Counted from the first letter of the stretch, positions 3,394 to 62,453 are shown. The stretch is DNA of 64,000 nt from Candidatus Cryptobacteroides sp. (GCA_045599265.1 JAZRVQ010000048.1:14627-78626); one strand, 5' to 3'. A program made the numbers and translations. The notes: generated by a model not told the origin, from the sequence alone.

Positions 3394-4809
3394 TTACAGT
3401 TTTTCGGTAAAAACTCTTCCGAATCTGTCCGTGACGCGAATTTCGCGATTTGATGTGCCAGACTGCGGCACAACCCTGAAAAGATTTGGAGTTTCGAACG
3501 CACATACCCACGAAATCTTGTAGATTGACGCGTCTTTGAATATCTCATACGGATGAGGGTCATAGCCCTTGAAACGCTCCATATCGCAGATTTTGACGTC
3601 ATCCTCATAATATTCGACCTTCCAGGCCTCATCGACATCCCACACATGCGCAATCACTTCTCCCGGATACATCGGGTCATTGTCATACACCTTCATCTGA
3701 TGGTCCTCCGGATAACCGGTGCCCTTGTAGTACCAGCTCACGTCCTCACCGTCCCAGGTATATACCTTGTAACCGGCAGGACATCCGTCGATGCAGCAGT
3801 CACCGCACCACCAGGCCCCGCACATGCCGCCGATATTGTGCTCGGTCAGATTGTCAGCGATGTGATGGTTGGTGTTGGTGTGCATGTGGCCGGACAGGAT
3901 GAGTGCCTTATATGGCTTCAGAAGGTTGTACAGGGCCGGTTTGTTGCACAGATTGTCCCCGATGACGTCATATTTGAACGCATCCCTGTCTGACTGGTCA
4001 AGCGTTGTCGGGATGTGCATGCACACGACGACGGGACTGCCCTTCCCGACGAACGACAGGTCCTTTTCCAGCCAGGCCAGCTGCCTTTCATCGAGGTAGC
4101 CGATATAGAAATAGTCACGTCCGACATAGAAATTGTCATCCATCACCACATAATGGACCCTGCCTACATTGAAGGAATAACAGACAGGGCCGAACACCTT
4201 TTCATATTCGGTGGACGATGTCTCATAGGACCGGCCCCAATTGGTCATGTCATGATTGCCGATTGTGTAGCGGAAATCGATCCCGACACGGCTGAATATC
4301 TTGTTGATGCGCTTATACAGAGGATGGTCCCAGCCCACAATGTCGCCCAGGCCGATGCCGAAAACGTCCCCTTCGATGCCACTGACAGTCTTTGCCATGT
4401 CATCGGCATGGTCTTCCAGCGGGACCAGGTCGTCAGGGTCCGAAACCTGGGGGTCGGCAAGCACAATCACGCTGTGACGGGTGTCATCGGTGTCCTTTTT
4501 TGTGACCGCAAAGTCATATTCGGCCTTGCCCGGCTTGATCTCGCTGTAAAAACAGGTCTCGCCCGGGAAAGAGGATGACTTGTACCCGGCCGGGGTGCTG
4601 ATGAAGACAAATTTGCCTGAAAGACGGTCAAACGGCATTTCATACCGGCCGTCCCTGTCAGTCTTTACGACACTCACTCCGTCCGACACGACCACACCGG
4701 CAAGCGGGGCATTGCCGTCCGTAACGGTTCCGTAAATTGTATTGACAGGTTTCGGTGTACATGAAAACAAAAAAGCGGCAAAAGCCGCGACAGCATAATA
4801 TTTCTTCAT
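3394..4809 (-). CDS. Calcineurin-like metallophosphoesterase lipoprotein with an N-terminal carboxypeptidase-regulatory-like domain
   Basis: 471 aa. Signal peptide plus lipobox (FLFSC). YGTVTDGNAPLAGVVVSDG...TDRDGRY suggests a beta-sandwich. Metallophosphoesterase motifs GDIVG, GNHD and GHMH are present. Confidence 0.8.
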   Translation of the reverse strand: MKKYYAVAAFAAFLFSCTPKPVNTIYGTVTDGNAPLAGVVVSDGVSVVKTDRDGRYEMPFDRLSGKFVFISTPAGYKSSSFPGETCFYSEIKPGKAEYDFAVTKKDTDDTRHSVIVLADPQVSDPDDLVPLEDHADDMAKTVSGIEGDVFGIGLGDIVGWDHPLYKRINKIFSRVGIDFRYTIGNHDMTNWGRSYETSSTEYEKVFGPVCYSFNVGRVHYVVMDDNFYVGRDYFYIGYLDERQLAWLEKDLSFVGKGSPVVVCMHIPTTLDQSDRDAFKYDVIGDNLCNKPALYNLLKPYKALILSGHMHTNTNHHIADNLTEHNIGGMCGAWWCGDCCIDGCPAGYKVYTWDGEDVSWYYKGTGYPEDHQMKVYDNDPMYPGEVIAHVWDVDEAWKVEYYEDDVKICDMERFKGYDPHPYEIFKDASIYKISWVCAFETPNLFRVVPQSGTSNREIRVTDRFGRVFTEKL

Positions 4810-4851
4810 ATCAACTTCTCCAATATATCTTGTATTTTGTGAATAAGCAGG

Positions 4852-5064
4852 TTACAAGGCACATAAGGCCGGTGAGGACAAGGCCGTGAATGATGCCACC
4901 CAGGTGATGCCCCGCACGTCCGGGTTGAACACATAGTCCGGAGGGGGCACCTGACAGTGGAACATCCACGCCGGGAGATTGGAATTCCACCCTATCGTGG
5001 CGCAGAAAACCATTCCGAATATGGCCAGGCCACGAAGTGCGTCGATTGATGCGATGCGCTTCAT
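4852..5064 (-). pseudogene. N-terminal remnant of a DUF5009 / heparan-alpha-glucosaminide N-acetyltransferase-like membrane protein
   Basis: Only 70 aa. SIDALRGLAIFGMV...LPAWMFHCQVPPPDYVFNPDVRGITWV matches, from memory, the start of proteins of about 370 aa. The frame then degenerates, and the next gene begins 43 nt away. Confidence 0.5.
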
Positions 5065-5070
5065 AAGCCC

Positions 5071-6225
5071 CTACTCCTCCTCTTCCTGTTTTTCGTCAAG
5101 ACCTTCATAATCCTCACCCTCAAGGAAAGGCTCGGTATTCGGGTCGATATAACTGTCATCAGAAACATGAGGCTCGACAAGCGCCTCGATCAGGACGGTG
5201 TCCCTGTCACGAGGGATGAGGAACACCTCAGGCACATCGGCCGGGACAAGCACGGTCTCGCCCTTGTGAAGGACGCAGCTGCCCTCTCCCTGTACGGTGG
5301 CCTCGCCTTCCGTGCAGACATACACGATGAAACTGCCGAACTTTTCGGTGCTGACACGAAGCGGCTCGGAGAGGTTGATCCTGGAGACGGTGAACTGTGG
5401 ACAGCGTACCAACTGGCTGATGACCTTGGCGTTCTCTTCCTTGTCAGAATCCTCCCAGAGAGGTCCCTTGCGCCACTTTGTCGGATCGAACGGACCGTAG
5501 TTTATGACATCGATAGCCTCGTCGAGATGCATCTTCCTGGCTGTGGCAGGGTTGAATTCGCGGCCCCAGTCGTACAGGCGGAAGGTCATGTCGGACGACT
5601 CCTGGATCTCGGCGATCAGCAGGCCTCCGTCAGCGGCGTGCACCGTGCCGGGAGTGATGAATATGCTGTCTCCTTTCTTGGGATGTATGACGTTCAGGAC
5701 CTCCTCGACAGTACCGTCGTGGCAGCGGTCATACAGTTCCTGTGCGGAAACTTCGCGGTTGAATCCCATATACACCTTTGCATCCGGCTGCGCATCCATC
5801 ACATACCATATCTCAGCCTTGCCGAGCGAATCATATCTTTCGGCTGCCACCTCGTCGTCCGGATGGACCTGGACTGAAAGACGGTCACGGATGTCCAGGA
5901 ACTTGACAAGGAGAGGGAACTGGAGTCCGAACCACTCGAACACAGCGTCTCCGACAACTCTTTCGAGGTAGGTCTCCATCAATTCCTCGATGGTGTTGCC
6001 GGCGAGCCAGCCGTCGGACACAACGCTCTCCTGGGCGCCCATATCGGCAAGTTCCCAGCTTTCGCCGATCTTGTCATCTGCCGTAAGGGGCACCTCATTG
6101 CCGTCCCGGTCGGTCTCGACAAACGACTTGCCAAGCACCTTTATGAGCGAATCTCCACCCCACGGCCTGCGTGAAGGGATAGGTATGAATTTAAGGGGAT
6201 ACAGTTTTTTCTGAGAAGTTTCCAT
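5071..6225 (-). CDS. manA: Class I mannose-6-phosphate isomerase
   Basis: 384 aa. Contains PWGG, SVQVHPDD and TVHA cupin/PMI motifs. It ends in an acidic tail (EEEE). Confidence 0.8.
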   Translation of the reverse strand: METSQKKLYPLKFIPIPSRRPWGGDSLIKVLGKSFVETDRDGNEVPLTADDKIGESWELADMGAQESVVSDGWLAGNTIEELMETYLERVVGDAVFEWFGLQFPLLVKFLDIRDRLSVQVHPDDEVAAERYDSLGKAEIWYVMDAQPDAKVYMGFNREVSAQELYDRCHDGTVEEVLNVIHPKKGDSIFITPGTVHAADGGLLIAEIQESSDMTFRLYDWGREFNPATARKMHLDEAIDVINYGPFDPTKWRKGPLWEDSDKEENAKVISQLVRCPQFTVSRINLSEPLRVSTEKFGSFIVYVCTEGEATVQGEGSCVLHKGETVLVPADVPEVFLIPRDRDTVLIEALVEPHVSDDSYIDPNTEPFLEGEDYEGLDEKQEEEE

Positions 6226-6274
6226 GTTCGCATAGTTTTGTTATGCGAATATACAAAAAATATGGAATGAAAAT

Positions 6275-7639
6275 TTATCCGATAAATTTCAAAATTCCTT
6301 CAAAATCATCTTTTTCGAAGCTGACTTGTTCTCCGGCAGAGAGATTCTTGATGTTTATGACGCCCTGAGCGGCCTCATCCCCACCCACGATGGACAGGAA
6401 CGGAATGGCCTTTCTGTCAGCATAGTCAAAGACTTTCTTGAGTTTTGTCTGCTCCGGGAAGATCTCGCAGGCCACTCCCCTTGCGCGGAGTTCCCTGACA
6501 ACCGGGATGAGGTATTTCACCTCACCCATATTGGCAAAAAGTATCTTTGTGGAAGATGTGACTTCTGACGGGAATTTACCCAGTCCACCGAGCACGTCAT
6601 ATATGCGGTCAGCGCCGAAAGAGATGCCGACACCGGACACGTTCGGAAGGCCGAAGATGCCGGTCAGGTTGTCGTAACGTCCACCGCCACAGATACTTCC
6701 GATCTGGAAGTCAAGAGCCTTGACCTCGAAGATTGCGCCGGTGTAATAATTGAGTCCACGGGCAAGGGAAAGGTCTATCTCGACCTGGTTATGAATGTCT
6801 GCGGCATCGATGAATCCGAACAGTTCCTCGAGTTCGTCAAGTCCCTTCAGACCTGTCTCGGAAACGATTCCGGAGGCTGACTGGCCATTCATCAGAGAGC
6901 GCATCACAGAGAGTTTCTCCTCGTTGGACCCGGCCAGCTGGAGAACAGGTTCTATGACCTTCACAGCCTCTTCGGAAAGACCTTTCTCAATCATTTCCGC
7001 CTCGACTGCCTCGAGACCTATCTTGTCTATCTTGTCAATGGCGACAGTTATGTCCACCACCTTGTCAGGGAATCCACATATCTCTGCAAGTCCGGTGAGG
7101 ACCTTGCGGTTGTTGATCTTGATGCAGACGCGCACATCAAATTTGCGGAACACGGTGTCGACGATCTGGACCAGTTCGAGTTCGTTGATCTGAGAAGTGC
7201 TGCCAATCACGTCGGCATCGCACTGATAAAATTCGCGGTAACGGCCCTTCTGAGGACGGTCTGCACGCCATACAGGCTGGATCTGGAAACGTCTGAACGG
7301 GAAGGCAATCTCGTTCTGGTGCTGCACCACAAAGCGTGCGAACGGCACGGTAAGGTCATAGCGGAGACCCTTCTCGCAGACCTGCGCTGCAAGCGGCCTT
7401 GACATATCCACGCCAGCAAACGCATCGCCGCTGTTGAGGATGCGGTACAGGAGTTTGTCCCCCTCATCGCCGTACTTGCCAAGCAGCGTGCTCAGATTCT
7501 CCATTGCAGGAGTCTCTATCTGGGTGTATCCATATGTCCGGTAGACACTCTTGATGGTGTCGAAAATATAGTTGCGTCCCGCCATCTCGGCCGGTCCGAA
7601 GTCTCGTGTTCCCTTTGGAATTGAAGGTTTCTGTGCCAT
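6275..7639 (-). CDS. hisS: Histidine--tRNA ligase
   Basis: 454 aa. KGTRDF, the class II motifs ([33 protein letters not shown]) and an anticodon-binding C-terminus are present. Confidence 0.95.
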
Positions 7640-20857: not shown

Positions 20858-21570
20858 AAAACCTGAAGATACTCAGCGGCAGTGCCCTGAAAGTCATCGC
20901 AGTGCTTTCGATGCTGTGTGACCATACCGCAAAATACATCCTGGCCGCATACGATTTTGCCTGGCAGACCTGGTTCACGTTCGGAGGTCTGGACGTCAAC
21001 CTGACGTATGTGATGACCAGTGTCCTGGGCAGGATTGCCTTCCCCCTGTTTGCGTTCCTGGCCGTCGAAGGGTACATGCACACCCGCAATTTCAGGAAAT
21101 ACTCCCTCAACCTGCTGATATTCGCCATCATCACGGTCATTCCATGGCAACTGCTGCACGGAAGCCCGGCCACATTCGAGGACTCGAACGTGCTCTTCAC
21201 CCTTTTCCTTGGCGTGACGGCAATATTCGCCATAGACCGGATACGCGGATGGAAGGCATTTGCCATCACAGCCCTCAGCATGTTCCTGGCATGGATATGC
21301 CGGGTAGATTACGGCATACTCGGTGTCACGATGATCATATTGCTGTACGCTCTGAGAGGCAGCCGCGAATTCCAGTCGCTCGGATTCGTCGGATGTCTGT
21401 TCCGCGGAAAGGCCACTGCAGGGGTTCCGCTTGCAGCCATCCCTGTCCTGATGTACAACGGAGAGAGAGGATTCATCAAAGGAAAAGCGGGCAAATACAT
21501 CTTCTACAGTATATACCCGCTTCACCTGCTGTTGATATACGGCATCAGAATCTGGCTCGGAATAGCCTAG
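20854..21570 (+). CDS. TraX family membrane protein
   Basis: 238 aa. LKVIAVLSMLCDHTAKYIL and multiple TM helices match my memory of the TraX family. Confidence 0.75.
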   Translation: MKNLKILSGSALKVIAVLSMLCDHTAKYILAAYDFAWQTWFTFGGLDVNLTYVMTSVLGRIAFPLFAFLAVEGYMHTRNFRKYSLNLLIFAIITVIPWQLLHGSPATFEDSNVLFTLFLGVTAIFAIDRIRGWKAFAITALSMFLAWICRVDYGILGVTMIILLYALRGSREFQSLGFVGCLFRGKATAGVPLAAIPVLMYNGERGFIKGKAGKYIFYSIYPLHLLLIYGIRIWLGIA

Positions 21571-22466
21571 AGTTCATCCATAGTATAGAATCTGCAGTCC
21601 AGTCCATCCCCCACGGAGAGGACCATGAAGCCCGTCTCATTGTCGGGATAATGCTCCTCAAGGGCATCCACGACGACATACTGCACATTTCCGGACCAAT
21701 ATGTGTCACGGCTGTGGTCATGCCCCGACAGGAAGAGTTCCACGCCGTTTGCACTCATAAGCCCCATAAGTTCGTATGATTCTTCCAGAGGATAGTTGCC
21801 GGTATGGCCCTGCGACTTGTCCGTCATGAACATGTGGGTGTGGGTGAACACGACAAGATGACGATAATTGCCTTTGGATGCACTGTCAAGCACTTCGCGG
21901 AGCCATTTCAACTGCCTGGTGCCGGTAAATCCGGAAGCGGTCTCGAAGCACACGTACAGGTCCTTGTGGAACGGGGTGCGGACCTCGACCGTGTAGGAGG
22001 AACTCCCCCACTGCCCAGTCCAGCCCTGCCACTGGTCAAAGTATATGTCATGATTGCCAAGTGTCAGGAACATGCCCGCGGCCTTGATTCCGGCCTCGTC
22101 GCGGAGATGGTCGCTGACCCAGTCCATATTGGTCCTGCCGTTCACGATGTCACCAAGGATCAGGCACATCGGGGATGTCAAATCATGCAGATATGCATTC
22201 AGGAAGGCATCCGTATGGGCAGTCGGAGCCTCTCTGTCAATGTGCATGTCAGTGCCGACATACACCTTGTAGTCATCCAGCAGCGAGATAACCAATCGGT
22301 CTCCTACAGTCTGATTCACCGTCATCGAGTGGTCGAAACGCTCGTTGACATTCTCCGTCCTGGAAGTAATCATTCCGGCCATATCCAGATTGGGCTCGAT
22401 CTCCTTGTCGGAGCAGGCAACACAGGACAACGCCAGCAGAGTATATAGTATCTTGTTGATTTTCAT
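21567..22466 (-). CDS. Metallophosphoesterase lipoprotein
   Basis: 299 aa. Lipobox LALSCVACS, with GTDMH, GDIVNG, GNHD and SGHDH motifs. Confidence 0.8.
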   Translation of the reverse strand: MKINKILYTLLALSCVACSDKEIEPNLDMAGMITSRTENVNERFDHSMTVNQTVGDRLVISLLDDYKVYVGTDMHIDREAPTAHTDAFLNAYLHDLTSPMCLILGDIVNGRTNMDWVSDHLRDEAGIKAAGMFLTLGNHDIYFDQWQGWTGQWGSSSYTVEVRTPFHKDLYVCFETASGFTGTRQLKWLREVLDSASKGNYRHLVVFTHTHMFMTDKSQGHTGNYPLEESYELMGLMSANGVELFLSGHDHSRDTYWSGNVQYVVVDALEEHYPDNETGFMVLSVGDGLDCRFYTMDEL

Positions 22467-55248: not shown

Positions 55249-55362
55249 GGTCTGCAAAAATCGCGCAGATTGCGCACATTAGAAAAAAGCAAATAGCTAT
55301 CTATCAGCATATTAGAATTTTCCACTATGCTCGGTCTGCCAACATTTTGCAGATTGCGCACA
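55249..55362 (+). promoter_or_regulatory. Two ~30-nt imperfect direct repeats sharing a perfect 14-nt core GCAGATTGCGCACA
   Basis: Copy 1 (55249-55278) is GGTCTGCAAAAATCGCGCAGATTGCGCACA. Copy 2 (55333-55362) is GGTCTGCCAACATTTTGCAGATTGCGCACA. They are 84 bp apart, and the core contains the palindrome GCA-GAT-TGC. Confidence 0.4.
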
Positions 55363-55399
55363 AAAACATGAGCGGTCACGCATCCCTGATGGCCTGGCT

Positions 55400-55426
55400 G
55401 GTGGGTCGCAGATCCCCCACCTTTTG
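55400..55426 (+). terminator. Terminator-like hairpin on the plus strand
   Basis: GGTGGG-TCGCAGATCC-CCCACC is followed by TTTTG. There is no annotated plus-strand gene within 370 nt upstream. Confidence 0.4.
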
Positions 55427-55451
55427 CACCACAATGTGGTTATTTTCTTGT

Positions 55452-57053
55452 CTAGAACCTGACTCCCACTGTCACGACGGCTGTCCAGAGGTTGTGGAAA
55501 TTGAGGATCTCCGGAGAAGGCACGAGGTTTCCAGACGGGTCGAGCACATAGTCGTCATAAGGATAGATATACTCGTCCTTGTCCAGACGGCATCTGACAG
55601 CCGCGTCGCAGAAGAAGGCGCCGTTGCTTGAATAGCCGAGTCCTCCGGAAATGGCCTGGTCGAAGGTCTTGATTCCCTTTATCCCCGAAGTGGAGAAGTT
55701 GTAACCGGCACGGATTGCAAGCTGGCTGATTGGTTTGAATTCGGCGCCGGCCCTGAATGCATGCGCACAGCCAAGACTCGATTTGATGTCAGAATTGAGG
55801 TCGGCGAACGGTGAGTACTCGGACCTTGGAGCCGGCTTATATTTGATGCTGCCGAAATTGGTCAGTTCATAGTCGGCGCTGATGACACCGATGCGGCCGA
55901 TGGTGTATGCCAGTCCGGCATTGTACCTTGCAGGGCTGTGAAGGTTGTAGCGCTGATTGAACTCCGGAGTTGATGCAGAAGCATTGAACTTGCTGTTGTC
56001 AAAATTGGTCTCGGCGGCGCTGCCCCAGATTTCAGACACGGACGTGAGAGTCGGGGTCTGGACTGCAAGTCCTATGCGGACAGGGCCCGGTGTGACGATG
56101 ATTCCGAACTTGCCAAAGATTCCGGTGCCCTTCGCATCATAAAAATACTGGTATTTGAGGCCGGAGAAATATGTCTTGCCATCCTCGCCATAATCGATTT
56201 CGAAGTCGTTCCTGTCCAGCGGAGTCTCCTTGAGGTACTCGTCACTTGAATACGAAAGCGACTCCGAGCCAAGGTTCGCACCGAGGAACACAATGTCACC
56301 GATATTGAATCCGACATTGATGAGCACGTCATATTTGTTGCCCGTCACGTGGCGTCCCCATTCCTGACTCAATGCGCCTGCGGTGAAGAATTCCCTGCTG
56401 CCGTCGGTATTTTCAACGAACTGCTCGGTGGCGCCGACATAGTCATTGGTGCCGTCCACATTGGATATCATGCCTGACTGCCAGCCAAGTACGGCAAGGG
56501 CGTCGTAGTTGTCGTAGGCAGAATTGCCATAATAGGCACTGGTCGGGAAGCCTGACGCAACCTGGGCCACACGGCCTGCGAACGATGTGCCGTTATGGTC
56601 ACCGAAGGCGAATGTATTGTCCAGAAATGTTCCGGTTGCGTTGCACACAAAGCCGAAAGAGACATTTTTGAGTCCCCTTTTCATGCCGGTCTTGAAATCC
56701 ATCACAAAACCGACACCCGGCATAGCGAACTCACCCTTGGCGTTCTTGATGTTCTGGTCGAAACAATATGGATAGGTATCGCCCTGGAGTATGGTGCCCA
56801 TGGCGTTGGACGTGCTGATGGAAGCACCCATCGTGATGGAACTCTGCGAGTAACGCGCCACGGCGGAACCGGCGGGATTGATGCCCAGCGAGCCTATGTC
56901 GCCGCCCAGAGCCGTGAAGGCGTTGCCCATTGCGATGGTCCTGGCCGAGCCGAGATAATCGTTCTGGCTGAGTTTCAGCCCCTCATACGGAGTTTGTGCG
57001 AACATCTGTGCAGCCGACAGGGCAAGCACAGCTATTGATATTATCTTTTTCAT
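55452..57053 (-). CDS. Outer-membrane beta-barrel protein, FadL/OMPP1/TodX-like
   Basis: 533 aa. Signal peptide ...AQMFAQ. The N-terminal LGSARTIAMGNAFTALGGDIGSLGINPAGSA resembles Bacteroidota FadL-like barrels. It ends in ...VTVGVRF. Confidence 0.6.
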   Translation of the reverse strand: MKKIISIAVLALSAAQMFAQTPYEGLKLSQNDYLGSARTIAMGNAFTALGGDIGSLGINPAGSAVARYSQSSITMGASISTSNAMGTILQGDTYPYCFDQNIKNAKGEFAMPGVGFVMDFKTGMKRGLKNVSFGFVCNATGTFLDNTFAFGDHNGTSFAGRVAQVASGFPTSAYYGNSAYDNYDALAVLGWQSGMISNVDGTNDYVGATEQFVENTDGSREFFTAGALSQEWGRHVTGNKYDVLINVGFNIGDIVFLGANLGSESLSYSSDEYLKETPLDRNDFEIDYGEDGKTYFSGLKYQYFYDAKGTGIFGKFGIIVTPGPVRIGLAVQTPTLTSVSEIWGSAAETNFDNSKFNASASTPEFNQRYNLHSPARYNAGLAYTIGRIGVISADYELTNFGSIKYKPAPRSEYSPFADLNSDIKSSLGCAHAFRAGAEFKPISQLAIRAGYNFSTSGIKGIKTFDQAISGGLGYSSNGAFFCDAAVRCRLDKDEYIYPYDDYVLDPSGNLVPSPEILNFHNLWTAVVTVGVRF

Positions 57054-57081
57054 TGCAAGTCAAATAATTAAATCAACAGAA

Positions 57082-58386
57082 CTACCTACCTCTGCTGGCA
57101 GAACCGCCACCTCCCGAGTGTCCGCCACCGGAGTAACCGCCACCACTGGAATGGCCGCCTCCCGAATAAGACGAGCCGCCTGAATAGCCTCCCCTTGAAC
57201 CGGAATAACTGCTGCTGGAAGAACTGCTCCTTGCTCCGGAATAGCTGCTGCTTGATGAACTTCTGTATGAAGAACTGCTGCTGGAAGAACTTCTGTATGA
57301 AGAGCTGCCGTAACTGCTGCGCGACGGAGTGGAAGTAGAGTATGAGCCTGTCCTGGCGGTTGAACTGCCGGAAGAATGACGCACGGCCGGGGTGCTTGAC
57401 GTGGCCGCACTGCGGGATGTCGATGACGAAGAAGTGAAGCTGGAACGGCTTGTGGAGGATGCACCCGAACCTGTGTAGGATGAACGTGATGTCGAAGACG
57501 AGGTCACGGCCGTGCGGGAAGCCGGAGATGACCCGGCATTTCTGGACAATGCTCCGAGGGCCTCTGTGTCACCGTTTCTGTAGGCGACCGAACGCCTTGC
57601 CTCCGTTGTCCTGGACATGCCGGAGGTCGAATTGCGTGAAGACCTTGTCGCAGACGACGTGACAGCAAGACGGGAAGATGCAGATGTCCTGGACCCCAGG
57701 CGGTTGCCGCCGATCCTGTCGGATGCGTATCTCGTGCGGCTTATGTCCTGCTGAGGGTTGCGGCGGCCATCATGGTAGCCTGTCCGGTAGCCTCTGCCAT
57801 AGCCGTAATTGTAGTCATGCCATCCATAGCCATAAGGATATCCCCAGCCCCAATAGTACAGGCCGGCTCCGTATCCGCCATAATACCATGGATCATAGTA
57901 AGAATAGTACCATGGGTCGTACCATCCGGCATAGCCATAATATCCGTAATACCACGGATCGTACCAGCGTCCCCAGGCATATCTGTCATACCAGCTGTAG
58001 AACCCGTACGGACGGAACCAAGGACTGGTCCAGTAATTCCATGGGTCATAATAGCCATAATATCCTGTGTACCAGTATGGTTCATCATAAATATTGACAG
58101 TTGTGCCTTCTGGAACAGAGAGTGTCAGATTGTTGATCTTGTATTCCTGAAGACCCGGTGTCTTTGTCGAGACATCGACAAAAATGTCTGAGTCCTGAGT
58201 GAGGGAAATAAGAGAATCCGTCTCGGCGGTTGCGGCCTGTGCCTGCAACTTGTCTGCCGGGTCGCTCTTGAAATAGATGCCGTCATCAAACTGCTGCTTC
58301 GAGGCAGAGGACGCAGTTTTTGACGCAGTTCCGCAGGCGGACAGCGCCAAAACAGACGAAATGACAGCAAAAACTTTGATTTTCAT
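57082..58386 (-). CDS. Lipoprotein with extreme Trp/Tyr/Gly-rich and Ser/Thr/Arg/Gly/Tyr-rich low-complexity regions
   Basis: MKIKVFAVISSVLALSACGT lipobox. A globular segment of ~90 aa is followed by YWYTGYYGYYDPWNYW...WYDPWYYGYYGYAGWYDPWYYSYYDPWYYGGYG..., then ~200 aa of S/T/R and a terminal SYSGGGHSSGGGYSGGGHSGGGG. Several shadow ORFs in other frames reflect the DNA repetitiveness. Confidence 0.7.
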   Translation of the reverse strand: MKIKVFAVISSVLALSACGTASKTASSASKQQFDDGIYFKSDPADKLQAQAATAETDSLISLTQDSDIFVDVSTKTPGLQEYKINNLTLSVPEGTTVNIYDEPYWYTGYYGYYDPWNYWTSPWFRPYGFYSWYDRYAWGRWYDPWYYGYYGYAGWYDPWYYSYYDPWYYGGYGAGLYYWGWGYPYGYGWHDYNYGYGRGYRTGYHDGRRNPQQDISRTRYASDRIGGNRLGSRTSASSRLAVTSSATRSSRNSTSGMSRTTEARRSVAYRNGDTEALGALSRNAGSSPASRTAVTSSSTSRSSYTGSGASSTSRSSFTSSSSTSRSAATSSTPAVRHSSGSSTARTGSYSTSTPSRSSYGSSSYRSSSSSSSSYRSSSSSSYSGARSSSSSSSYSGSRGGYSGGSSYSGGGHSSGGGYSGGGHSGGGGSASRGR

Positions 58387-58480
58387 ATTATGACCTCCTT
58401 TGATTATCACAAAATTTTGTACCTTCGCGGTTCAAGTATTAGATGCAAATTTAACGAATTAGTTTAATATTATACAAATA

Positions 58481-59959
58481 ATGGCAAAAGAAGTCACAAA
58501 ACGGTCAGAAAACTACTCCCAGTGGTACAATGACCTCGTTGTAAAGGCAGACCTCGCCGAGCAGTCAGCGGTCAGGGGATGTATGGTCATCAAGCCATAC
58601 GGATACGCTATATGGGAAAAGATGCACGAAGTGCTGGACAAGAAATTCAAGGAGACAGGGCATCAGAACGCATACTTCCCTCTTTTCATCCCGAAATCCT
58701 TCTTCAGCCGTGAGGCCGAGCACGTGGCAGGTTTCGCCAAGGAATGTGCAGTCGTCACTCACCACCGCCTGATGAACGACCCGGCCGGCAAGGGCGTCGT
58801 AGTCGACCCTGAGGCAAGACTTGAGGAAGAACTTATCGTCAGGCCTACTTCCGAGACCATTATCTGGAGCACATACAAGAACTGGATCACATCATGGAGA
58901 GACCTCCCTATCCTCTGCAACCAGTGGGCAAACGTCGTGCGCTGGGAGATGAGGACAAGACTGTTCCTCCGCACCGCCGAATTCCTCTGGCAGGAAGGAC
59001 ACACCGCGCACGCAACTTCACAGGAGGCAATCGAAGAGGCACAGAGAATGGTGAACGTATATGCAGATTTCGCGCGCAACACCATGGCCCTGCCTGTGAT
59101 TATCGGCCACAAGAGCCCTAACGAGCGTTTTGCAGGCGCCCTCGACACACTCACCATCGAGGCGATGATGCAGGACGGAAAGGCACTCCAGGCCGGCACG
59201 TCACACTTCCTCGGCCAGAACTTCGCAAAATCATTCGACGTGCAGTTCACCAACAAGGAAGGCAGGCAGGAATATGTCTGGGCAACATCCTGGGGCGTCA
59301 GCACACGCCTTATGGGTGCACTCATAATGGCGCATGGAGACGACAACGGACTCGTTCTGCCTCCGGCACTTGCACCTATCCAGGTCGTCATGGTCCCTAT
59401 CTACAAGACCGACGAGGAGCACAACGCCATCCTTGACAAGATGGCAGAGATCAAGAAAGAGCTCGAGGCTGCCGGACACAGCGTCAAGATCGACGACAGA
59501 GACACACTCCGTCCGGGATTCAAGTTTGCCGAGTGGGAGCTCAAGGGCGTTCCTGTACGCGTCGCCATCGGTCCCCGCGACCTTGCCGCCGGCACAGTCG
59601 AACTCGCACGCCGCGACACTCTCACCAAGGAGACAGCAAGCGTCGAGGGTCTTGCCGGGCGCATCGGAACTCTTCTTGACGAGATACAGAAGAACATCTA
59701 CGAAAAGGCGTTCGCATTCCGCGCCGAGAATGTGCGCAAGTGCGACGACTGGGAAGAATTCAAGACCGAGATCCAGAAGGGCGGATTCCTTCTCTGCCAC
59801 TGGGACGGGACCCCTGAGACCGAGCAGGCCATCAAGGACGAGACAAAGGCCACCATCAGGTGTATCCCTGTCGATTCGTTCGTATGCGAAGAGGAAGGCA
59901 AGTGCATCTATTCCGGCAAGCCTTCACATCAGCGCGTTGTATTTGCAATTTCTTATTAG
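58481..59959 (+). CDS. proS: Proline--tRNA ligase (archaeal/eukaryote-like type)
   Basis: 492 aa. Starts [27 protein letters not shown]. Class II motifs are present ([24 protein letters not shown]), and it ends in ...VFAISY. Confidence 0.95.
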
Positions 59960-61142: not shown

Positions 61143-62453
61143 ATGAAGGTACTCCTCGCAGTTAGCGGAGGCATCGACTCAATGACTATGGCTGATATCT
61201 GCGTCAGCCATAGTCGTTTTTGCCCCCTGGAACTGCAGGATGCCGAATTCGCCATTGCACACTGCAACTTCCACCTTCGCCCGGGAGACTGCGACCTTGA
61301 CGAGAAACTGGTCAGGGAATGGGCCGAGGGCCACTGTGTCCCGTTTTTCAAAAAGGATTTCGATACACAGTCATACGCATCCGGCAGGGGGATAAGCATC
61401 GAAATGGCGGCACGCGACCTGCGCTATGCATGGTTTGCCGAACTCTGCGAGACAGAGGGATTCGATGCAGTGGCAGTGGCCCACAATGCAAATGACAATG
61501 CCGAGACGCTGATGCTCAATCTCCTGCGCGGCACCGGCATCCGCGGATTGTGCGGAATGGATCCATCCGGGAACTGGAACGGCTGCCTGTCGTACGGCAA
61601 TGCCGAGGCCCACTGGCCAAAGCTGATGCGTCCGCTTCTGGGCATGACCCGCAGGGACATCGAGCACTATGCCACGCTGTACCATGTCCCGTACCGGACA
61701 GACAGGACAAACCTCGAGAACGAGTACAAACGCAACAAGATACGCAATCTCGTATTCCCTGTGTTCGAAGAGATCAACCCGTCATTCATTCAGACGCTTG
61801 GCAGCGACATTGCACATTTCCGTCAGGCGGCAGACGTGCTTGACCACTGGGTGGACAGCCACAGACTCGAGGTGACAGGCACGGATCCGGACGGCAACAC
61901 ATTCATTTCTGTGAGCCGGCTCACAGCTACCGAAGACTGGGAATACCTCCTGTACCGCATCCTTGAAGAATGGGGATTCAACGGATCCGTTGCAGAGTCC
62001 CTGACAGGACTTATCCGCTCCGGCAAGGCCACCTTTGCCGGAAAGACATTCACCGGCGAGGACCATTCCATCGTCACGGCACCGGACCGCATCATAATTT
62101 TCAGAGAAATTCCCGAAACCGAATATGACATTTCCGAGTATGAATACACGCCGGGAATGCCCCTCAAATGCCCTCCAGGCGTGCTTATTATGGACGCCGG
62201 CAAGGTCCCGGCAGACTACATCATCCGCCATTGGGAAGACGGAGACTGGCTGGTTCCGCTAGGAATGAAGGGCAGAAAAAAGGTCAGCGACCTCTTCACC
62301 GACCTCCATCTTAATCTGCTCCAGAAGCAGAAAAGTCTCGTCCTGGCAACGCCGGGAAGCAGTCATGTCCTGGCCGTCCTCGGACTCCGCATCGACGATT
62401 CCGTCAAAGTGACGCCAGCAACTGAAAAAATCATCAAAATTCTTTCTTTGTAG
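61143..62453 (+). CDS. tilS: tRNA lysidine(34) synthetase
   Basis: PP-loop VSGGIDS, with HNANDNAETLMLNLLRGTG and a C-terminal TilS domain. Confidence 0.9.
   Translation: MKVLLAVSGGIDSMTMADICVSHSRFCPLELQDAEFAIAHCNFHLRPGDCDLDEKLVREWAEGHCVPFFKKDFDTQSYASGRGISIEMAARDLRYAWFAELCETEGFDAVAVAHNANDNAETLMLNLLRGTGIRGLCGMDPSGNWNGCLSYGNAEAHWPKLMRPLLGMTRRDIEHYATLYHVPYRTDRTNLENEYKRNKIRNLVFPVFEEINPSFIQTLGSDIAHFRQAADVLDHWVDSHRLEVTGTDPDGNTFISVSRLTATEDWEYLLYRILEEWGFNGSVAESLTGLIRSGKATFAGKTFTGEDHSIVTAPDRIIIFREIPETEYDISEYEYTPGMPLKCPPGVLIMDAGKVPADYIIRHWEDGDWLVPLGMKGRKKVSDLFTDLHLNLLQKQKSLVLATPGSSHVLAVLGLRIDDSVKVTPATEKIIKILSL

Follow-up and report, generated by a model that had tools for sequence, protein, structure and literature searches.

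Two 2025 structures of the β-barrel assembly machine (BAM) complex of Bacteroidota show BamG, a barrel of the FadL fold that does not act as a channel, holding the surface lipoprotein BamH by its N-terminal segment, which is conserved and lipidated (PMC12578637, PMC12611786). BamH itself is folded, carries an acidic export signal and has a carbohydrate-binding-type fold (PMC12611786, PMC12578637). The genes for the paralogues BamG2 and BamH2 (Bt1785-Bt1786) are adjacent and form a putative operon; PorV, another FadL-fold protein, binds proteins secreted by the type IX system (PMC12578637). Surface lipoproteins of Bacteroidota typically carry two or more acidic residues among the six positions after the lipidated Cys (PMC12578637). 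Herein, we describe a gene pair in a 64,000-nucleotide (nt) stretch of Candidatus Cryptobacteroides sp. (GCA_045599265.1, JAZRVQ010000048.1:14627-78626). This whole stretch is called the window, and positions are counted from its first letter. On its minus strand, a gene with an ATG start that encodes a disordered lipoprotein of 434 amino acids (aa; 57082..58386, stop codon included) lies directly upstream of the gene for a FadL-fold outer-membrane barrel of 533 aa (55452..57053), which has a signal peptide and ends in ...VGVRF.

The pair resembles BamG-BamH in that a FadL-fold barrel is encoded with a partner gene, and BamG is the best structural match of the window barrel. However, no sequence relationship to BamG could be detected, and the window barrel has 533 aa compared with ~390-406 aa in the solved BamG chains. 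Unlike BamH, the window partner is disordered, cationic and aromatic-rich, has no acidic export signal, and many of its relatives are not lipoproteins. A criterion for BamG is an N-terminal extension of ~10-12 residues relative to FadL. In a hand alignment, the window barrel has 15 residues before the conserved G-x-A-R and E. coli FadL has 11, that is, ~4 extra. The module falls into a class already recognised, that of Bacteroidota FadL-fold barrels with a protein partner of their own; it differs in its distinct barrel clade and in an unannotated, nearly fully disordered partner for which no counterpart has been described. Our literature searches found no paper that describes the disordered protein or the pair, or that contains WYDPWYY-type strings.

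Conservation of the gene pair

One genome per GTDB species was scanned with the barrel alignment, which yielded at least 501 barrel relatives. Counts of pair conservation refer to the best 80 of these, which come mostly from Candidatus Cryptobacteroides and unnamed Bacteroidales of human, chicken, ruminant and horse guts. A homologue of the disordered-lipoprotein gene lies directly upstream of the barrel gene, on the same strand, in 80/80 related loci. The gap between the two genes is 10-120 nt (median 27.5 nt), with a single outlier of 749 nt (L051), where the lipoprotein gene is frameshifted. In this locus (4172..5929; Bacteroides sp. CAG:709 scaffold FR882201.1), the frameshift falls after the aromatic block and the entire Ser/Arg tail runs stop-free in another frame to ...GGTVRRH; either the assembly is at fault here or the gene has become a pseudogene very recently.

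Nine distant relatives of the disordered protein were looked up for their neighbours. A homologous FadL-type barrel lies 14-125 nt downstream in seven of them (P0055, P0389, P0362, P0354, P0370, P0355 and P0383). These barrels have 454-536 aa, that of P0370 being cut by the contig end, and were confirmed by hhalign or hmmsearch (E 1e-22 to 1e-86). The neighbourhoods of the seven pairs differ, and include prmA/prfC, deoC/dprA, panB, a Porin_10 gene, sdh and others. Since the two genes stay together while their surroundings change, there is strong evidence for functional coupling of the disordered protein and the barrel.

The pair is also found in the cultured Lascolabacillus massiliensis (GCA_001282625.1), in which a 425-aa protein is encoded 21 nt upstream of the barrel. 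This partner reads GFAQ/EWDDIYADP..., ...WYDPWYNPWYYSRWYSPWYYGRWYDPWYYGYAGWYGG..., and ends in ...SSGGRR. The same arrangement occurs on a JGI scaffold of 5.07 Mb. The most distant pair found (L100, 3001..5665; Logan SRR7787139) consists of a 427-aa lipoprotein and, 16 nt downstream, a 454-aa barrel with a Toluene_X match. Its neighbours are a sensor kinase that carries FG-GAP/ASPIC domains and a sigma-54 response regulator. From this locus, the module may extend beyond Bacteroidales. The tail of the L100 lipoprotein is rich in Lys as well as Arg (…KTQKTRTSTQVKSKSKPVKRSAKK…); avoidance of Lys is therefore not universal.

The pair had first been noted by a model in a reading of the window alone, without database searches (the sequence-only reading), which left open whether it is conserved across Bacteroidales. 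The 80/80 loci and the 7/9 distant relatives answer this in the affirmative. In conclusion, the two genes are one conserved outer-membrane module of gut and digester Bacteroidales.

Architecture of the disordered lipoprotein

The window lipoprotein, all features of which lie on the minus strand, begins with a signal peptide and lipobox (58333..58386; MKIKVFAVISSVLALSAC), in which LALSAC is followed by GT and Cys18 is predicted to be lipidated. LSAC at aa 15-18 fits the pattern [LVI][ASTVI][GAS]C, and the 434-aa protein is accordingly predicted to be a bacterial lipoprotein. The next 87 residues form an acidic head of ordinary composition (aa 19-105, 58072..58332; isoelectric point, pI, 4.1). 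The head contains the family-wide motif F-D-D-G-I-Y (aa 33-38, 58273..58290); in the alignment of the lipoprotein family (A2), there is no variation at D35, G36 and Y38 and almost none at F33 and I37. The aromatic block follows (aa 106-215, 110 aa, 57742..58071), with 34 Tyr, 13 Trp and 20 Gly (Y 31%, G 18%, W 12%, D 7%, P 7%). Tyr and Trp together make up 43% of the block, which has only two aliphatic residues and is built of units such as WYDPWYYGYYG, WYDPWYYSYY and DPWYYGGYG. The unit WYDPWYY, initially counted three times, occurs exactly twice (aa 141 and 155), and the count of three holds approximately if near copies are included (YDPWYY at aa 164, WYDRYAW at aa 132).

The remainder of the protein (aa 216-434, 219 aa) is a tail rich in S/T/R/G, with 39% Ser, 26 Arg, no Lys and a pI of 11.7. 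It is composed of a Ser/Thr/Arg-rich middle segment (aa 216-330, 57397..57741; net charge +13), which holds the conserved island R-Y-A-S-D-R-I (family consensus R..TGSDRVF), and a Ser/Gly/Tyr/Arg C-terminal tail (aa 331-434, 57085..57396) that ends in ...SASRGR. The C-terminus reads ...GGGYSGGGHSGGGGSASRGR and can also be written SYSGGGHSSGGGYSGGGHSGGGGSASRGR. The lipobox protein with an ordinary segment of ~90 aa, an aromatic stretch of ~120 aa and a S/T/R-rich remainder of ~200 aa, as outlined by the sequence-only reading, was thus recovered as an 87-aa head, a 110-aa block and a 219-aa tail in the same open reading frame (ORF).

This composition is far outside chance when compared with the 16 other genes of the window, in which Tyr averages 4.0%, Trp 1.3%, Ser 6.7% and Lys 5.3%. 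Tandem Repeats Finder located a 30-nt DNA repeat inside the tail-coding region (57245..57308; 2.1 copies, 91% matches, score 107). A tandem repeat had been expected near 57270-57320 with a unit of ~27 nt; the repeat is present, but its period is 30. All six Ser codons are used in the lipoprotein gene, so slippage of a single DNA repeat does not account for the composition of the protein. In the AlphaFold model of the lipoprotein, built from a 22-sequence alignment, the mean predicted local distance difference test score (pLDDT) is 44.6, and the only secondary structure consists of two helices, one in the signal peptide (aa 6-15) and one further on (aa 44-64); the protein is thus predicted to be almost wholly disordered. 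A Pfam scan of the window lipoprotein returned nothing at E≤1 apart from a noise hit at 0.53.

Homologues of similar length (~380-480 aa) numbered 363 among the 5.8 billion proteins searched, at 27-40% identity. Among 1.84 billion cluster representatives (50% identity level), the family profile matched 1305 at E≤1e-3, of which at least 367 reached E≤1e-10 and 80 reached E≤1e-30. Composition was computed for the 74 relatives that could be parsed, all of which (74/74) have a lipobox. Their parts follow one order: lipobox, F-x-D-G-I-Y, head, aromatic block, often a His run, R..TGSDRVF and tail. The common head, after F-x-D-G-I-Y, is IYLFGDKKDTVxIP..SAxIxYD..GTVVTV..NPYDW. The aromatic block has 93-149 aa and 33-41% W+Y, with the consensus GWYDPWYYGG, and the tail has 154-276 aa, ~44% Ser+Thr, a net charge of +17 to +36 and a median of 28 Arg versus 1 Lys. 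Further tail features are an island N-x-R-R-P, SSSY-type repeats and the ending ...GGYSGGGxSRSGGSSGGRR; the C-terminus is RR in 70/74 members. No acidic residue was found within the six positions after Cys in any member (0/74).

More distant relatives with other heads match the profile over the aromatic block and tail only. They carry either a lipobox or an ordinary signal-peptidase-I signal, and share DDIY/DDLY directly at the mature N-terminus or close to it. Scans of 42 family members (22 plus 20 with other heads) against Pfam and NCBIfam gave no match.

A D-(S/T)-(A/I/L/V/M/T) triplet, the sequon of general O-glycosylation in Bacteroidetes, occurs exactly once in nearly every family member, mostly as K-D-T-V in the head, and is almost absent from the Ser/Thr-rich tail. 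The window copy is without the GDKKDTV consensus and has D-S-L instead (aa 56-58, 58213..58221). In P0292 (566 aa), lipobox, head, aromatic block and part of the tail are followed by a folded-looking C-terminal domain of ~190 aa, which reads …CPEGWRLPTETEWEEC…FSAIPAGYF… and which may resemble the Fibrobacter succinogenes major paralogous domain. A second family, represented by P0078, P0093 and P0097 (loci L082-L085; gene of L082 at 6001..7278), has 425-440 aa, a folded-looking head without DDIY and a block rich in Trp/Tyr/His/Cys. Its Ser/Thr/Arg tail, which is that of the first family, contains 9-aa TTRSSSAS(T/A) repeats and ends in ...GGGSTRR. The genes of this second family follow lptF/G and ribBA, with no FadL-type barrel adjoining, and are found on many contigs (up to 236 kb), so they probably belong to a common gut species.

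The protein shares features with eukaryotic FUS-type/RGG regions and with adhesive or coacervating proteins rich in Tyr/Gly/His/Arg: [G/S]Y[G/S] motifs, many Tyr and Arg, few aliphatics and predicted disorder. The prion-like resemblance that had been proposed holds at the level of composition, with seven [GS]Y[GS] motifs within the last 104 aa, but does not go further, as the tail is poor in Q/N (4 in 219 aa), Arg-rich and has one RGG motif. Unlike in FUS-type regions, the aromatics are concentrated in one block that is Trp-rich, and there is no homology. Moreover, unlike FUS-type proteins, the window protein is predicted to be exported and lipid-anchored in a bacterial envelope. WXXGXW/YXWGXW lipoproteins (PF12779) are likewise bacterial lipoproteins with Trp/Gly-rich repeats, but the window unit is WYDPWYYGG. 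Pfam gave no match to PF12779 in the window protein or 22 relatives, in agreement with the initial view that it stands outside that family.

Selection on the reading frame

The window gene was compared with that of a Logan contig (L081) that has 88% DNA identity to the window over 9 kb and the same gene order. The L081 lipoprotein has 427 aa and is 93.8% identical to the window protein, evenly along its length: 94% in the head, in the aromatic block and in the middle, and 93.5% in the tail. Every one of the 17 gapped positions falls within the C-terminal tail, and all are in frame. Tail length thus does vary between close relatives, a point related to the variation in repeat length that the sequence-only reading had raised. 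By the Nei-Gojobori method, the ratio of nonsynonymous to synonymous substitution rates (dN/dS) was 0.057 for the whole lipoprotein gene, with 0.16 in the head, 0.03 in the aromatic block, 0.06 in the middle and 0.04 in the tail. For comparison, the values were 0.064 for the barrel gene, 0.036 for lnt and 0.039 for a nearby pseudouridine synthase gene. Hence, the low-complexity parts are under purifying selection, at a constraint that matches housekeeping enzymes. The synonymous rate (dS) was 0.18 in the first 105 codons (58072..58386) and 0.6-1.0 in the remainder of the gene, all from small counts. The low value in the head may stem from recombination or, alternatively, from a constraint that acts on the 5' mRNA or on the divergent promoter region.

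Since dN/dS is 0.03-0.06 in the low-complexity parts and indels are in frame only, the lipoprotein frame is real. Overlapping ORFs in other frames (57060..57464, 57741..58088, 57678..58097 and 57772..58191) are by-products. Frameshifts in relatives, loss of synteny or a true gene in another frame had been named as grounds to abandon the gene; substitution pattern, indels and synteny all uphold the annotated frame.

The barrel and its hatch

The AlphaFold model of the barrel (pLDDT 86.6; predicted template modelling score, pTM, 0.83) has an N-terminal region of short helices (aa 20-68) followed by long β-strands. Several of the predicted strands span 20-28 residues, from which it is probable that the barrel extends in part past the membrane; the secondary-structure string of the model has 15 strand segments and is too unreliable for a strand count or topology. 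In a Foldseek search against the PDB, the top 26 matches were all FadL-family chains (E 1.5e-16 to 1.7e-9, target template modelling (TM) score 0.56-0.65), aligned at 8-14% identity. The best match was B. thetaiotaomicron BamG (9hiv_F; E 1.5e-16, target TM 0.63), and BamG of F. johnsoniae and P. gingivalis were also within the top seven. Other matches were E. coli FadL, TbuX, the P. aeruginosa FadL homologue, TodX and CymD, as well as NPA, N33 and P34 mutants of E. coli FadL. The fold recognized in the sequence-only reading, a 533-aa FadL-like barrel 28 nt downstream on the same strand, is borne out by these matches.

The hatch, or plug, comprises aa 20-68 (56850..56996, minus strand), starting at the predicted mature N-terminal Gln20, and contains an NPA motif (aa 59-61, 56871..56879, minus strand). 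NPA is the signature of the FadL hatch. In the barrel alignment A1 (24 close relatives scanned), the hatch is the densest invariant run (Q20, Y33, G35, A37, R38, M42-A45, T47-G50, D52, G54, N59, P60, A61). All three residues of NPA are invariant in A1, and N and P are invariant in A3, a barrel profile of four distant members.

Sequence searches reached the known families only in part. The window barrel has no Pfam match at E≤1, Toluene_X (PF03349) included, and 23/24 of the A1 members lack a Toluene_X match as well (1/24 has one). In contrast, homologous barrels in Dysgonomonadaceae and others carry PF03349, and OmpP1/FadL family transporter is the name given to those of Proteiniphilum, Fermentimonas and Lascolabacillus massiliensis. 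The A1 profile found no chain among PDB sequences even at E≤10; the A3 profile reached TbuX (E 1.6e-5) and the P. aeruginosa homologue (6e-3), and no BamG chain in the PDB at E≤10. The window barrel shares fold, N-terminal hatch and NPA motif with the FadL/TodX/TbuX channels (Toluene_X), from which it differs in the missing Toluene_X match, in ~100 extra residues and, compared with characterised FadL channels, in an obligatory neighbouring gene for a disordered protein. Similarly, it resembles PorV/PorQ in being a FadL-fold barrel with a weak match to the NCBIfam model (NF033709), confined to the hatch (E 1.3e-7); the score is 31.5 bits versus a cut-off of 90, and the partner is without a type IX C-terminal domain and ends in a Gly/Ser/Arg tail. 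In all, 1936 barrel homologues were found. We conclude that the barrel belongs to the FadL fold and superfamily as a separate clade, neither BamG nor PorV, and that the clade of the window lineage is not captured by Pfam.

Fast evolution of the barrel was considered and rejected. Its identity of 45% compared with 83-90% for ProS seemed to point that way, but TilS (38-51%) and the DUF3078 protein (44-58%) diverge equally; across the 80 loci the barrel value is 41-47%.

Locus organization and transcription

The spacer between the two genes (57054..57081, 28 nt, minus strand) is too short to hold a promoter. The consensus TAnnTTTG is the -7 element of Bacteroides promoters. A candidate Bacteroidetes-type -7 element, TAAATTTG, lies on the minus strand at 58446..58453, 60 nt upstream of the lipoprotein ATG, within the 94-nt divergent spacer (58387..58480) common to proS. 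In a motif scan of the minus strand across 55300-58600, this was the sole TAnnTTTG, and none occurred within the lipoprotein gene or the 28-nt spacer. The lipoprotein and barrel genes are thus probably co-transcribed from a promoter upstream of the lipoprotein gene, as judged from the arrangement and motifs. A terminator-like hairpin overlapping the lipoprotein stop was rejected, since it folds no better than shuffled sequence (z = 0.06); no significant RNA structure was found in the spacer region (z = 0.06 versus shuffles), and the count of terminator-like hairpins around the stop is within expectation.

Divergently from the lipoprotein gene, proS (58481..59959, plus strand) is followed by the gene for a DUF3078 outer-membrane protein, which starts with an ATG at 59955, within the last few bases of proS (59955..59959), and by tilS (61143..62453). 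Among the 80 related loci, these divergent upstream neighbours recur in 75 (proS), 68 (DUF3078 gene) and 64 (tilS). The downstream side of the pair is without conservation. The gene lnt, whose product acts in lipoprotein maturation, lies downstream in the window and was rejected as a functional neighbour because it adjoins the pair in 0/80 related loci.

A possible barrel-docked disordered protein and its alternatives

Our preferred, though tentative, interpretation is that the lipoprotein is a barrel-docked, self-associating envelope protein, for which the barrel would provide a dedicated dock and which would form a cohesive layer at the outer membrane. Docking of the disordered protein on the barrel can be suggested with moderate confidence, by analogy; the cohesive-layer mechanism is held with low confidence. 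The lipoprotein is predicted to be exported by Sec and lipidated at its N-terminus. By synteny and by analogy with BamG and PorV, the barrel would then act as the membrane dock of its disordered neighbour. The N-proximal DGIY/DDIY segment may be the docking element, because it is the sole feature of the head common to lipidated and non-lipidated relatives. In line with this role, the one relative without the motif (P0093/P0078) has no barrel beside it either. Docking on the barrel is also suggested because the non-lipidated relatives would otherwise have no membrane anchor.

According to the phase-separation literature, the chief stickers are Tyr and Arg, and Lys is far weaker than Arg. A corresponding sticker grammar is kept across the family: ~47 Tyr/Trp in one block, then ~26-33 Arg, with Lys almost excluded and a Ser/Thr/Gly spacer. 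Once the protein is tethered, the ~47 Tyr/Trp of the block and the Arg-rich tail could supply many cation-π and π-π contacts, by which chains would stick to one another or to anionic envelope polymers, and so form a gel-like cohesive layer. The default site of this layer would be the periplasmic face of the outer membrane, where it might tether or cushion the envelope; should the chain also be exported by the barrel, a surface coat would be formed. The absence of the acidic lipoprotein export signal in all members (0/74) favours the periplasmic face as the predicted location. Elsewhere in the window, another lipoprotein (21567..22466, minus strand) reads C-S-D-K-E-I-E from its likely lipidated Cys, which fits the acidic surface-export signal and provides a contrast within the same genome. 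The terminal Arg-Arg might, speculatively, protect the chain from C-terminal processing proteases.

Several points weigh against this interpretation. Docking is drawn from synteny and analogy, and self-association from composition and the eukaryotic Tyr/Arg sticker model. The invariant hatch and NPA motif suit a protein dock no better than a working channel for small molecules. The known protein partners of Bacteroidota FadL-fold barrels lie on the surface, contrary to a periplasmic default. An unfolded, aromatic-rich periplasmic chain should attract chaperones and proteases, which would call for a protective arrangement or for export. Two of the nine distant relatives, P0385 and P0093, have no adjacent barrel, P0093 being a member of the second family and without the DDIY motif as well. 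Finally, the window protein is itself divergent within its family: its head is without the IYLFGDKKDTVxIP...SA segment, and it ends in RGR, not GRR.

A doubtful but substantial alternative is that the barrel is an outer-membrane conduit or insertase for the unfolded chain, which would become adhesive, matrix or fibre material on the surface or be released. Cargo of the Slam/type XI system occurs in lipidated and non-lipidated forms and is encoded beside its barrel. The disordered protein is cargo-like in the same sense, as it is found lipidated and non-lipidated with the same barrel partner; Slam/type XI is for this reason a closer analogy than curli or Fap. Moreover, a fully disordered chain is the type of substrate that narrow barrels can pass, the known FadL-fold partners in Bacteroidota (BamH, type IX cargo) are on the surface, and strands of 20-28 residues would let the barrel project past the membrane. 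A composition of Tyr/Trp/Gly/His/Ser/Arg also resembles that of extracellular adhesive and coacervating proteins. However, FadL-fold barrels are plugged by the hatch, which is here the most conserved part, and we know of no FadL-family member that translocates a polypeptide through its lumen. The protein has no lipoprotein export signal, type IX C-terminal domain or amyloid-type repeats, and few N/Q, and an Arg-rich unfolded chain would be very vulnerable to the trypsin-like proteases of the gut.

The comparison with curli and Fap, made in the initial reading as speculation, bears on the same alternative. In curli (CsgA/CsgG), Fap (FapC/FapF) and Slam/type XI, as here, a barrel gene adjoins the gene of an exported protein that is unfolded or lipidated/unlipidated. 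The window pair differs in its barrel fold, in having no Q/N amyloid repeats and in having no C-terminal β-barrel cargo domain. No CsgG, FapF, curlin/FapC-type or DUF560 Pfam match was found in the window pair or its relatives (24 barrel, 22 lipoprotein), and the barrel is of the monomer-type FadL fold with a conserved plug. Thus, the comparison stands as an analogy of gene arrangement only, and membership of curli or Fap does not hold.

Less likely than export, and unlikely overall, is that the barrel works as a FadL-type channel for fatty acids or for aromatic or other hydrophobic molecules, with the Tyr/Trp block as an acceptor on the periplasmic side. The block, at the inner face of the outer membrane, would collect substrates released laterally from the barrel and hand them over. 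Fold, hatch and NPA are kept and invariant, the Dysgonomonadaceae relatives pass Pfam Toluene_X under the name OmpP1/FadL family transporter, the missing export signal places the partner in the periplasm, and a block with 43% Trp+Tyr would be expected to partition strongly to the membrane interface. On the other hand, no characterised FadL system needs a partner protein, the window barrel is without a Toluene_X match, and no conserved genes of fatty-acid or aromatic catabolism lie beside the pair, whose neighbours vary by lineage. The cationic Ser/Arg tail of 220 aa would have no obvious role.

It is very unlikely that the pair, as one of the BamG/BamH type, serves the BAM complex of Bacteroidota as an accessory or an alternative unit. 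The structural match to 9hiv_F, the two further BamG chains in the top seven and the adjacency of the BamG2/BamH2 genes speak for such a unit; against it, identity to BamG is 11-12%, both A1 and A3 failed to find a BamG chain in the PDB at E≤10, the barrel is ~130 residues longer than the BamG chains, and BamH is folded with an acidic export signal, while the partner here is disordered and without one. An artefact, in which the low-complexity ORF is not real or another frame is, and the adjacency to the barrel is accidental, has a negligible probability: repetitive DNA does yield long overlapping ORFs, but the dN/dS of 0.03-0.06 in the annotated frame, the in-frame indels, the hundreds of homologues of the same architecture and the adjacency in 80/80 loci and most distant lineages refute it.

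An extension of the barrel-docked interpretation is improbable in this general form: in Bacteroidales, and perhaps in the Fibrobacteres-Chlorobi-Bacteroidetes (FCB) group at large, the FadL-fold barrels of the clade would be an unrecognised route by which disordered proteins are handled at or across the outer membrane. Each barrel would export or anchor its own neighbour rich in Tyr/Trp and Arg, and these chains would condense to a gel tethered to the membrane. If true, it would be a bacterial envelope condensate with the aromatic/arginine grammar of eukaryotic FUS-type proteins.

Implications

The module has at least 367 cluster representatives of the disordered protein and at least 501 species-level relatives of the barrel, neither of which is informatively annotated in the window clade. 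Its hosts are dominant, poorly cultured Bacteroidales of gut, rumen and digester (Cryptobacteroides and allies, Proteiniphilum, Fermentimonas), and cultured carriers such as Lascolabacillus massiliensis make it testable. The two-gene module is a simple system for the study of barrel-partner recognition. A protein that is ~75% low-complexity and under purifying selection of housekeeping level also offers a bacterial test of the sticker model in the cell envelope. If docking is true, the pair would be the third independent case of a FadL-fold barrel that holds a protein in Bacteroidota, and the first with a disordered partner.

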